Source of the DNA: Candidatus Heimdallarchaeota archaeon
Lineage (GTDB): Archaea; Asgardarchaeota; Heimdallarchaeia; JABLTI01
Length of the DNA: 32,000 nucleotides
NCBI GenBank assembly: GCA_030614005.1
Contig: JAUWKS010000007.1
Span: 1-32,000 of the forward strand
Reading direction: 5' to 3'
Made by a program: the position numbers and the translations under genes. The number at the start of each line of letters is the position of its first letter. Positions within the stretch are counted from its first letter, which is position 1. Shown in pieces: positions 15,368 to 17,164 of the stretch. The notes beneath the pieces are model-generated. The model was given only the letters and a program-made list of their open reading frames with translations. It made no database searches and was not told where the DNA came from.

Positions 15368-17164
15368 TTGATGGCTGAGTTTGGCGTAGACTTTTACTTA
15401 ACAATAGTATTATCTTTTGTAGAATTAGTCATACTTGGTATTTTCACCGTTCTTTATTTCAAAAAAAAGCAACCTGCTTTCCAATCACTAATTATTTCTG
15501 CGTTCCTATTTCTTCTTGCTAATATTGTATCTATTATTCATATTGTAATGCCAAACTTGGCTGGCTTGACATTTTTCCAAGGACTTTTAAGTGCTGCCGG
15601 ACTTGCACCGATTGTTGTATTCTTAGAAATATTTGAAAATGGAACTTCTTTTAATCAAAGGAGTTCTTCATCAGTTATTTTTATACTGCTTATTGGCGCA
15701 GTCAAGGGTGCATCAAAATTACTAGTTGTTGAATTTCATGGTCCACTAGAGGTAGAGTTGGGAAATTTCTTCAATTTTATTGCACCAATATTGTTTATTT
15801 TAGTTGGCTCTCTGTACGTCAACACTCTCTCTAAAATGAAGGATCGTATTCGCTTTGAAAATCAAAAGAAAAAGATTCGAAAAGTGAAAACAGGTGTTTA
15901 TCTTACTTTTATTATCCCTAAATTTATTTCAGGGTCCATTTTTACTTTGAGCATTTTACCAGCATTTATCTTCAAAGATTTTGATGTTAATCTCATATTA
16001 GATCAAAGTAATATTTTCGATTTAATTGTAAATACTACACAAATTATTGGACTGGTAGTACTGAGTATACCAATTATTTTCAGTGGATCAGTATTCTTTA
16101 TGCAATCAAGGAAGGTTTCAAGATTAATAGTTATTAATAAAGATGCTATCCCAATCTTCGAGTTTGCATTTGAAAAGGAGGATTCATTCTGTGATGATAA
16201 ATTGCTTAAAGAGGCTTATAATTCTATAAGCACAATAATGAATGATGGGGGGATAGCTTGTCAAGAATTAAAGTCAATGAATTTCAGTGATGTACAAATT
16301 ATGGTTGATGTCCGGGATGATTTCGCGGTATTATTAGTAACAGACAGACCAACTTTATTTTTGAACAAAGCAGTGGAATCTTTTGCAAATGATTTTCAAT
16401 TAATCTTCCCTCAAAATACTGACTTAAATCAAATAAGAACTCAAAAGATCAAATTTACTGCAGAAAAAATGATTCAAAAAAACTTCGGTTTGGAACAAGA
16501 AGAATTTGAGCAAATACGTTCAATTGTTAGAATGGGTTTTGATAAAGTAGGAATTGAATATTCGAAAACGAGATTGGAATCTGATGAAGAAGTGCTCTTA
16601 CTACCCGATTTTATGAAACGCTTGCCAACCGGTGCTCGAGTTTTAGATGCAGGTTGTGGCGCTGGAGAACCTATTACAAGGATTTTAAGTGAGAGATTCA
16701 AAGTGGTTGGTGTAGATATTTCACGAAAACAAGTAGAAGCAGCTCGAAAAATACTTCCATATTGCGATTTTGTCTGGCAAGATATGACAACGCTAACGTA
16801 CCCTGATGGCTACTTTGATGGCATAATTTCATACTATGCAATACCCCATGTTCCAAGAGAAGAACACAAAGGATTAATGGATAATTTCTTCCGTATGCTA
16901 AAAGAAGGTGGGTATGTTCTGCTCTGTTTTGGAACAGATGATGATCCAGGAACAGTTATAGATGGTTTCTTTGGCGTGAAAATGTATTGGAGTAGTTTTG
17001 ATGCAGGGACAAATGTGGAAATGTTGAAGGAAACTGGATTCCATATTACTTGGTTAAAGTTCATTTTTGATGATTTAACAGAAGAACAACACATTTTTGC
17101 ATTAGCTCAAAAACCACACAAAGAACTATTCGATGAAATAAAAGAAAGAAAAAGAATTGATTGA
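15368..17164 (+). CDS. Multi-pass (~7 TM) membrane protein fused to a longin-like domain and a class I SAM methyltransferase
   Basis: Seven hydrophobic segments in the first ~245 aa; SRLIVINKDAIPIF...FAVLLVTD; C-terminal VLDAGCGAG, GVDIS, YAIPHVPR. Confidence 0.82.
   Translation: MMAEFGVDFYLTIVLSFVELVILGIFTVLYFKKKQPAFQSLIISAFLFLLANIVSIIHIVMPNLAGLTFFQGLLSAAGLAPIVVFLEIFENGTSFNQRSSSSVIFILLIGAVKGASKLLVVEFHGPLEVELGNFFNFIAPILFILVGSLYVNTLSKMKDRIRFENQKKKIRKVKTGVYLTFIIPKFISGSIFTLSILPAFIFKDFDVNLILDQSNIFDLIVNTTQIIGLVVLSIPIIFSGSVFFMQSRKVSRLIVINKDAIPIFEFAFEKEDSFCDDKLLKEAYNSISTIMNDGGIACQELKSMNFSDVQIMVDVRDDFAVLLVTDRPTLFLNKAVESFANDFQLIFPQNTDLNQIRTQKIKFTAEKMIQKNFGLEQEEFEQIRSIVRMGFDKVGIEYSKTRLESDEEVLLLPDFMKRLPTGARVLDAGCGAGEPITRILSERFKVVGVDISRKQVEAARKILPYCDFVWQDMTTLTYPDGYFDGIISYYAIPHVPREEHKGLMDNFFRMLKEGGYVLLCFGTDDDPGTVIDGFFGVKMYWSSFDAGTNVEMLKETGFHITWLKFIFDDLTEEQHIFALAQKPHKELFDEIKERKRID

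Follow-up and report, generated by a model that had tools for sequence, protein, structure and literature searches.

A methyltransferase joined to a seven-helix, longin-bearing membrane protein in a Heimdallarchaeial lineage

The forward strand of a contig of Candidatus Heimdallarchaeota archaeon (JAUWKS010000007.1) carries a gene in which a seven-transmembrane (7TM) protein and a methyltransferase (MTase) share one frame. The question raised by this locus is whether such a protein is a receptor that signals by methylation or a membrane platform on which an enzyme is held. The window analysed comprises 32,000 nucleotides, and all positions given below refer to it.

The fusion gene and its distribution

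The gene forms a single open frame at 15368..17164 (+), as given by the list of open reading frames and their translations. It encodes 598 aa from the TTG at 15368, or 597 aa if translation starts at the ATG at 15371, the latter being identical to the recorded protein P0003 of the protein collection. The product contains, in this order, seven TM helices, a cytoplasmic longin-fold domain, a hinge of four residues and a class I SAM methyltransferase. The first-pass annotation had described a 7TM protein fused through a longin-like domain to an intact class I methyltransferase; every part of this architecture was right, and its coordinates and motifs agree with the reading frame, the hydropathy, the AF2 models and the Pfam matches.

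The full-length frame is present in 10 of the 11 genomes of one Heimdallarchaeial family (f1) and in no other among 399 Asgard genomes. Protein searches returned 33 homologous clusters with the fusion architecture, of about 600 aa and 49-93% identity, all of which contain the MTase. The search for the same architecture in other assemblies, proposed in the first-pass annotation, thus places the fusion in at least nine further genomes besides these clusters, and it is not unique to one assembly. An assembly or gene-calling artefact joining two genes, for which nothing speaks beyond the general risk of metagenome bins, is refuted by this unbroken frame and by a junction sequence conserved among independent sources (NCBI, JGI, ENA and Logan).

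To our knowledge a methyltransferase output is undescribed for any 7TM protein. The earlier remark that no characterised case was known is in line with the Pfam and literature searches, in which none was found, and no published description of the 7TM-longin-methyltransferase design was found in the full-text literature, most subscription journals lying outside its coverage.

The alignment of 24 orthologues indicates which parts of the protein are maintained. The cytoplasmic loops have a mean identity of 74%, with 43% of positions invariant and fixed lengths, against 33% identity, no invariant position and variable length in the outer loops. The mean identity is 69% in the linker between the longin domain and the MTase, and 76% in the MTase itself. 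As measured by these alignments, selection is shown to be strongest on the cytoplasmic loops, the short hinge and the enzyme, and to be absent from the outer loops. Within the membrane, the polar or helix-shaping residues S44, G78, E87, G110, P140, T180, P184, K185, Q225 and P235 are invariant; judged from the same orthologues, they exceed what a passive anchor would need. The pattern of conservation fits a functional unit at the inner membrane face and does not demonstrate that a ligand is sensed.

A seven-helix bundle followed by a longin domain

The membrane bundle (aa 7-238; 15386..16081, +) has seven hydrophobic segments on the Kyte-Doolittle scale, and AF2 places its helices at aa 7-33, 36-60, 66-91, 97-121, 126-160, 164-201 and 214-238 (pLDDT 78 and pTM 0.70 for the model of the N-terminal part). 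The first-pass annotation had made its reading depend on a count of seven, and both hydropathy and AF2 give this number. The topology is shown to be N-terminus outside and C-terminus inside, the K+R count being 15.7 for the inside loops vs 3.9 for the outside loops. This orientation places both the longin domain and the enzyme in the cytoplasm. The cytoplasmic loop that joins TM5 to TM6 (aa 154-176; 15827..15895, +) is K/R-rich, with about 10 K+R and a constant length of 23 residues in 24 of 24 orthologues, and contains the invariant motif RxRFENQKxK.

In the VIA-align matches listed, the bundle resembles microbial rhodopsins most strongly. VIA-align superposes it on the rhodopsin Kin4B8 with Z 17.9 and an rmsd of 3.5 over 224 residues, on many other microbial rhodopsins with Z 16-17.8 at 6-11% sequence identity, and on GPCR structures with Z 14-16. 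A retinal photoreceptor was nevertheless rejected because helix 7 (aa 214-238), in which N222 and Q225 are the conserved polar residues, has no Schiff-base lysine; the alignment shows that the stand-alone relatives described below also lack it. Of the GPCR signatures, neither E/DRY, expected where TM3 ends, nor the NPxxY of TM7 is present, the corresponding segments being FLEIFENG and SIPIIFSGS. The input domain had been likened to HisKA_7TM, which found no backing, since aa 1-380 draw no Pfam hit at E≤1, whether from a 7tm, longin or roadblock family or from any other.

The domain that follows the bundle (aa 250-375; 16115..16492, +) has the beta/alpha order of the longin topology, which occupies about 120-130 residues. 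In the AF2 model this region reads beta-beta-alpha-beta-beta-beta-alpha-alpha, with strands at aa 250-257, 262-267, 303-306, 309-315 and 319-325 and helices at 277-293, 330-346 and 358-372. The top Foldseek matches of the N-terminal model are zeta-COP (2hf6), AP sigma and TRAPP longin subunits, followed by roadblock proteins; these matches, obtained with the whole N-terminal model as the query, are weak (E 6e-3 to 5e-2, TM-score 0.45-0.64; 0.48-0.64 on the target for the eukaryotic longins). The same fold topology is found in the longins of AP sigma, zeta-COP, the TRAPP core, SNAREs, Mon1-Ccz1, GATOR and FLCN. Unlike in these eukaryotic platforms, the longin domain of the fusion lies C-terminal to a 7TM bundle and ahead of an enzyme, and Pfam detects no sequence-level membership among them. 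Longin domains and small GTPases belong to the eukaryote-like features of Asgard archaea.

The 7TM-longin part is the usual full protein of a family, because its stand-alone Asgard relatives align with it end to end and stop at its last residues. These relatives (typically about 375 aa, with lengths of about 360-410 aa, annotated as 'hypothetical protein', with no Pfam or NCBIfam model) align with aa 1-378 of the fusion at 18-28% identity and have both its seven helices and its longin domain. Their C-terminal helix ends in ..FGL, as does the last longin helix of the fusion (alignment A3), and they carry no enzyme, stopping exactly where the MTase of the fusion begins. In both forms TM3 is followed by the motif F-[DE]-x-F-E and TM7 by [FL]-[LM]-Q-x-x-[RK], and the TM5/6 loop contains a conserved Q. 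A profile based on alignment A3 retrieved 1818 clusters at the 50% identity level, of which 108 at E≤1e-30, mostly aligned over about 5-380, and genomes contain several paralogues. Eight stand-alone relatives had no Pfam match at E≤1. The family is large, unnamed and uncharacterised, and apparently restricted to Asgard archaea in the tests made.

Within this family the fused proteins stand apart. They have invariant residues of their own, K185 and the RIRFENQKKKIR loop, which are not those of the stand-alone proteins, and they are without a close stand-alone orthologue, the best match outside f1 having E 2e-15. The MTase form (613 aa) is the only one of the best 150 family representatives to be far longer than about 450 aa, and a word-based search, which is weak evidence, found no 7TM-longin protein above 695 aa. 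Two stand-alone 7TM-longin genes occur in the same genome as the fusion. Their neighbours encode ribosomal proteins, CDP-archaeol synthase and a tRNA synthetase; no GTPase gene lies beside them, and they offer no functional clue.

The methyltransferase domain and its free paralogue

The MTase (aa 384-585; 16517..17122, +) is recognised by both PF13649 (Methyltransf_25; 68.6 bits vs a cut-off of 27) and PF08241 (Methyltransf_11; 61.7 bits vs 21.2), each over aa 425-518. Its motif I, LDAGCGAG (aa 426-433; nt 16643-16666, +), D450 within GVDIS (aa 448-452) and D472 within QDM are invariant in the 24 orthologues; their SAM-binding roles are assigned from the general features of the class I fold. 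The earlier description of the enzyme as intact accords with this alignment, in which all the SAM-binding motifs are kept. Invariant columns make up 35% of the domain and include the putative substrate-lid segment FFGVKMYWSSFD; aa 523-542 are strongly conserved yet poorly modelled by AF2.

In the AF2 model strands and helices alternate over aa 424-581, as in a Rossmann-like alpha/beta fold, and Foldseek returns many methyltransferases at E 3e-9 or better, among them 3e23 (TM-score 0.78) and 3ofk (0.80). The fold is common to PDB 3e23, 3ofk, 3cgg and the second domain of plant phosphoethanolamine N-methyltransferase. The full-length model has a pTM of 0.51, which gives low confidence in the placement of the MTase relative to the membrane.

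The domain is similar to generic Methyltransf_11/25 enzymes, which are small proteins about 200-230 aa long. Phosphoethanolamine N-methyltransferases are its best sequence matches in the PDB (E 8e-15); a specific kinship with them was rejected, as the alignment covers the generic SAM-binding core only, and their substrate is therefore not inferred for the fusion. No NCBIfam cut-off was reached, the best family being DVU_1556 (53 bits vs 155). The likeness to characterised enzymes is limited to the SAM-binding core and stays below the NCBIfam cut-offs, so that no substrate is transferred by homology.

A stand-alone methyltransferase of 205 aa is encoded immediately upstream (14627..15244, +). 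The fused domain aligns with it over its full length and with the same motifs (BLASTP: 50% identity over 202 aa, no gaps, E 1e-71). Unlike such small soluble Methyltransf_11/25 enzymes, the MTase of the fusion has a covalent membrane anchor in the protein to which it is joined. The orthologues in family f3 are 32-40% identical to the fused domain, and in the tree the fused and the free copies fall in one clade (support 100/100). Because the upstream copy is closer than the f3 orthologues and shares this clade, the sequences point to it as the probable source of the fused domain, through local duplication.

Platform, receptor or sensor

The reading that we prefer, with middling confidence, is that the MTase is held at the inner membrane face, and probably controlled there, by the 7TM-longin platform. 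The integral membrane protein consists of an entire 7TM-longin protein that bears at its C-terminus an entire small class I SAM methyltransferase. The module would hold the enzyme at the membrane as a platform, probably dimeric via the longin domain, and would probably gate its access to, or its activity on, a membrane-proximal substrate. The latter might be the head group of a lipid, a small molecule associated with the membrane or a protein that docks on the longin domain. In the cytosol, the free 205-aa paralogue would carry out the same chemistry. A platform and a true receptor predict identical sequence features, and sequence analysis cannot separate them.

A one-component receptor, in which the bundle senses a ligand or a physical signal and the longin domain relays it to switch the MTase, is an alternative that we consider rather unlikely. 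The enzyme would then methylate a signalling target, either a small GTPase or another longin-docked protein or, by analogy with chemoreceptor adaptation, E/Q-rich cytoplasmic motifs of the receptor itself. This reading draws on the rhodopsin- and GPCR-like fold (Z 14-18 over about 225 residues), on the receptor-like N-out/C-in topology and on a family that, like sensor families, is large with several paralogues per genome. The conserved motifs are also found where TM3, TM5/6 and TM7 end on the cytoplasmic side, the sites at which 7TM receptors engage their partners, and the longin domain and the enzyme are only four residues apart. However, the outer face has no conserved residue, neither the Schiff-base lysine nor the GPCR motifs are present, and neither the best 150 representatives nor the search for long proteins revealed a different output domain on the module. 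Moreover, a generic Methyltransf_11/25 enzyme of about 200 aa more typically methylates small molecules than proteins.

The general layout has parallels among known receptors. Rhodopsin-phosphodiesterase, the rhodopsin-cyclases, plant 7TM-RGS1 and the bacterial 7TMR-DISM/HisKA_7TM sensors likewise combine seven helices with a C-terminal cytoplasmic effector, and rhodopsin-phosphodiesterase (7d7q) superposes on the bundle with Z 14.3. The fusion differs from them in having no retinal lysine in TM7, no sequence match, an intercalated longin domain and a methyltransferase as its output. The parallel with a bacterial or archaeal chemoreceptor and CheR, in which a membrane receptor likewise has a class I SAM methyltransferase attached to it, is conceptual only. 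CheR, which has a family signature of its own, is not joined to the receptor in one protein, the chemoreceptors are coiled-coil proteins with two TM helices, and the fusion matches neither family in Pfam or NCBIfam.

More generally, the Asgard 7TM-longin proteins might be receptor-like transducers whose rhodopsin/GPCR-shaped bundle acts on longin-based partners such as small GTPases, the MTase of the fused subfamily being either an added output, directed at a docked protein, a lipid or E/Q-rich cytoplasmic motifs of the receptor, or a SAM-sensing input. This view, which we hold to be distinctly unlikely, would if true make them an archaeal counterpart of the eukaryotic longin/roadblock platforms for nutrient and signal sensing at membranes.

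The narrower proposal that the MTase domain itself is the input, sensing SAM or SAH and reporting to the longin platform and its partners, is improbable. Its model is SAMTOR, a SAM sensor with the class I methyltransferase fold that acts in eukaryotic longin/roadblock-based nutrient signalling, where longin and roadblock domains serve as GTPase platforms. In keeping with it, one and the same type of longin is appended to a wide variety of Asgard proteins, which suggests that these have a downstream partner in common. Against it, the domain gives no sign of being catalytically dead, the putative substrate lid is invariant in addition to the SAM site, and the free paralogue next door is of ordinary size, with orthologues elsewhere that are stand-alone enzymes.

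The neighbouring genes suggest a metabolic role, which we regard as highly improbable. Upstream lies an SDR-type L-threonine 3-dehydrogenase gene (tdh; 13611..14558, +; matches to PDB threonine dehydrogenases at E 1e-126 to 1e-66), and a BioF/Kbl-family glycine C-acetyltransferase gene (kbl; 17187..18449, -) is convergent with the fusion gene, its product matching TIGR01825 (E 1e-133) and PRK06939 (E 1e-124), both below the equivalog cut-offs. Both MTases could then act in threonine/glycine metabolism, for example by converting the glycine made by Tdh and Kbl into sarcosine or betaine, and the order tdh, MTase(s), fusion and convergent kbl is kept in all f1 genomes examined. This order reflects shared descent, because the entire block, including a pyruvate kinase gene and an unknown ORF, is collinear within f1. 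In families f3, f5 and f6 no kbl and no copy of this MTase lies within 1.5 kb of tdh, the stand-alone MTase orthologues of f2 and f3 have unrelated neighbours such as M20 peptidase, MFS and GNAT genes, and no glycine/sarcosine methyltransferase is among the PDB matches listed. The functional link to tdh and kbl was therefore rejected, and the neighbourhood gives no functional clue beyond the collinearity of the lineage.

The roles of Asgard longin proteins are largely obscure, and nothing is characterised in the 7TM-longin family. Of the members found here, the fusion alone includes an enzyme, whose SAM binding and turnover are simple to read out, and through it the family as a whole becomes accessible to experiment. 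Should the bundle do no more than position the enzyme, the fusion would still point to a membrane-proximal methylation confined to one Heimdallarchaeial lineage. Should the bundle control the enzyme, the fusion would be the first 7TM protein known to us whose output is a methyltransferase.

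Architecture and topology of the fusion protein

The fusion gene (15368..17164, forward strand) is a single uninterrupted frame in the translated window, with 598 codons counted from TTG. The codon after TTG is ATG, and a start at this ATG gives the 597-aa product recorded as P0003. A class I SAM methyltransferase (MTase) is the sole part of the protein recognized by Pfam and NCBIfam (Methyltransf_25, 68.6 bits against a cut-off of 27, and Methyltransf_11, 61.7 against 21.2, at aa ~410-520), and residues 1-380 have no match at E<=1 in either database. Hydropathy indicates seven hydrophobic segments and a strongly basic loop at aa 154-176. 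Two AlphaFold2 models, obtained from an alignment of 24 fused orthologues, cover the full length (pLDDT 74, pTM 0.51) and aa 1-382 (pLDDT 78, pTM 0.70). The layout is identical in both: seven TM helices (aa 7-33, 36-60, 66-91, 97-121, 126-160, 164-201 and 214-238), a beta-beta-alpha-beta-beta-beta-alpha-alpha domain (aa 250-372), a break of four residues and a Rossmann-type domain from aa 377 to the C-terminus. The first-pass annotation, made from the sequence alone, had described a bundle of about seven helices joined through a longin-like domain to a MTase. Its coordinates are correct, the helix count agrees with hydropathy and both models, and the motifs LDAGCGAG and GVDIS that it named are placed at aa 426-433 and 448-452.

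The predicted cytoplasmic loops of the 24 orthologues are rich in Lys+Arg (mean 15.7) and fixed in length (three of them with 12, 23 and 12 residues), whereas the predicted outer loops contain few (3.9) and vary (0-15, 7-20, 11-34 and 16-27 residues). This pattern puts the N-terminus outside and both soluble domains, longin and MTase, in the cytoplasm. Mean pairwise identity and the proportion of invariant positions in these orthologues are 74% and 43% for the cytoplasmic loops, 76% and 35% for the MTase, 69% and 32% for the linker, 59% and 16% for the TM helices and 56% and 14% for the longin domain; the outer loops retain 33% identity and no invariant position. The helices also keep invariant polar or helix-shaping residues (S44, G78, E87, G110, P140, T180, P184, K185, Q225 and P235). 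On this evidence the bundle is no mere greasy anchor; its cytoplasmic face appears to form a single functional unit with the hinge and the enzyme.

The bundle superposes best on microbial rhodopsins (Kin4B8 with Z 17.9, rmsd 3.5 and 224 residues; many others with Z 16-17.8), followed by GPCRs and TMEM87A (Z 14-16), at 6-12% sequence identity; the Z values clear the tool's caution threshold for helical bundles yet concern shape only. With no lysine in helix 7 and no DRY or NPxxY motif, the protein is not a retinal protein and is not recognizable as a GPCR.

The best Foldseek matches of the soluble domain are the longin proteins zeta-COP, AP sigma subunits and TRAPP Bet5/Trs23-type subunits, then roadblock. 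The matches are weak (E 6e-3 to 5e-2, target TM-score 0.45-0.64), and the modeled order of strands and helices is that of longins. We call it, on the predicted structure, a longin-fold domain outside any sequence-defined longin family. This longin type is promiscuous: other Asgard genomes have it at the C-terminus of TPR proteins, of MFS-type transporters, of an FrhB-like iron-sulfur protein and of ~775-aa unknown proteins. The transporters at L056:1174-2922 (+) and L059:1306-2868 (+), with 583 and 521 aa, and the 525-aa FrhB/ferredoxin-like protein at L058:1284-2858 (+) are additional membrane- or enzyme-plus-longin architectures. The window's genome has 15 longin-profile matches, including a TPR-longin gene in the window (6548..8866) and two stand-alone 7TM-longin genes, whose neighbors are uninformative on function at both loci. 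On its contig C68 (~24769-26267, locus L097), two very large adjoining ORFs on opposite strands (frames of 1842 and 1815 aa) have the longin profile as their only match.

Function of the fused methyltransferase and its gene surroundings

Motif I, D450 and D472 of the MTase are invariant in the 24 orthologues. The invariant columns include the segment FFGVKMYWSSFD, where model confidence is low and which may be a substrate lid. The best PDB sequence matches are plant phosphoethanolamine N-methyltransferases (E 8e-15), with the likeness confined to the SAM-binding core; the best NCBIfam match is far under its cut-off, and the Atlas neighbors are unnamed bacterial Methyltransf_11/25 clusters of ~200-230 aa. 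As this likeness to characterized enzymes is generic, the substrate is not transferable by homology.

The architecture, topology, conservation and intact SAM-binding motifs of the fusion are established. The first-pass annotation had offered two functional readings, which survive at different strengths. The reading as a membrane-tethered enzyme has about an even chance: the fused MTase would be active, the 7TM-longin part would both control it and keep it, probably in dimeric form, at the inner face of the membrane, and the methyl acceptor would be membrane-proximal. The stricter reading as a receptor, with signal in and methylation out, is possible though rather less probable. Conservation on the cytoplasmic side is compatible with either, because in GPCRs the conserved motifs are likewise concentrated in the cytoplasmic half. 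That the MTase domain would instead serve as a SAM sensor is quite unlikely.

The gene order is kept throughout f1, the window's own Heimdallarchaeial family: pyruvate kinase comes first, then an unknown ORF, tdh, between one and three free MTases and the fusion, with kbl convergent to it. PDB matches (E 1e-126 to 1e-66) identify the tdh product as an SDR-type threonine dehydrogenase, and kbl encodes a BioF/Kbl-family enzyme. This order could speak for MTases serving the threonine/glycine pathway, but it carries little weight, since the whole f1 block is collinear, tdh has neither kbl nor this MTase within 1.5 kb in families f3, f5 and f6, and the free orthologues of the MTase in f2 and f3 have unrelated surroundings; such a role is very improbable. 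In the window, tdh (13611-14558, +) and kbl (17187-18449, -) are convergent with two MTase genes between them. The two genes are usually paired, and the tdh genes without a nearby kbl in other Heimdallarchaeial families indicate that this pairing is not maintained in the class. The 359-aa ORF at 12375-13454 (-) has no Pfam or NCBIfam match and stands beside tdh in all f1 genomes examined, with 32-78% identity. Further along, a 1247-aa MMPL/RND (HAE3-like) transporter (21966-25709, +) weakly matches hopanoid and sterol transporter models, and is a putative large lipid-type exporter in an archaeon.

Distribution and origin of the fusion

A search with aa 1-380 only returned 33 protein clusters (49-93% identity) from NCBI, JGI, ENA and Logan, of ~600 aa barring fragments and all with MTase Pfam families. 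The sources are named as Heimdallarchaeota, Asgard group, one Thorarchaeota and one Bathyarchaeia. Of the 399 Asgard genomes searched, only members of f1 yielded the full-length frame (607-637 aa, E<1e-110); 10 of the 11 f1 genomes have a match, weaker and fragmentary ones included. The junction, ..KNFGLEQEEFEQI.., is conserved in the orthologue alignment. An assembly artefact, for which the first-pass annotation had allowed should the fusion be unique to its assembly, is ruled out by this conservation across clusters, f1 genomes and junction, its probability being negligible. P0032 (locus L009, genome G089), a fusion from the window's genus, carries the NCBI name 'Candidatus Bathyarchaeia archaeon'; the taxonomy given to this bin is probably wrong.

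Weaker matches (E 1e-4 to 2e-15, 20-28% identity) occur in ~130 further genomes of the 399, as frames of ~360-410 aa. Several such frames often occur in one genome, and many span nearly the whole query; the eight stand-alone relatives checked have no Pfam match. Aligned with the fused forms, the stand-alone relatives extend over all seven helices plus the longin domain, stopping at the helix ..FGL, the exact attachment point of the MTase. The two forms share F-[DE]-x-F-E where TM3 ends on the cytoplasmic side, a Gln within the TM5/6 loop and, after TM7, [FL]-[LM]-Q-x-x-[RK]. The profile of this alignment, searched against 1.84 billion representative proteins, matched 1818 clusters at E<=1e-3, 595 at E<=1e-10 and 108 at E<=1e-30. 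The best 150 of the 1818 are nearly all of 330-410 aa, shorter partial sequences set aside, and only P0016 (613 aa) among them bears the MTase. In the ESM Atlas, aa 1-382 adjoins clusters of Promethearchaeota (Asgard) hypothetical proteins. By its end-to-end relatives, profile clusters and Atlas neighbors, the module corresponds over its full length to a large family that has no name and was found here in Asgard archaea only; the MTase-bearing form is its rare offshoot.

The fused MTase is 50% identical to the 205-aa protein encoded upstream (14627..15244, +), gapless over 202 residues (E 1e-71). Stand-alone orthologues of the latter are found in the sister families f2 (59% identity) and f3 (34-45%). 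In a maximum-likelihood tree, the free and fused MTases of f1 and f2 form one clade (100/100) apart from f3, a result read at clade level only, as the tree took in just two full-length fused domains and one row was wrongly tagged 'FUSED'. This separation places the duplication feeding the fusion, by sequence, inside this lineage. The stand-alone MTase genes of L042 (G088, f1) and L046 (G028, f3) are almost identical (branch lengths 0.026 and 0) in genomes of different families, a pattern pointing to contig mis-binning or very recent gene transfer.

A full-text literature search of incomplete coverage found no published description of a 7TM-longin protein or of a MTase on one. At the level of sequence comparison, the fusion is shown to derive from a duplicate of the neighboring MTase joined to a complete 7TM-longin gene. 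It belongs with the 7TM proteins bearing a fused cytoplasmic effector and, equally, with the membrane-anchored class I methyltransferases.
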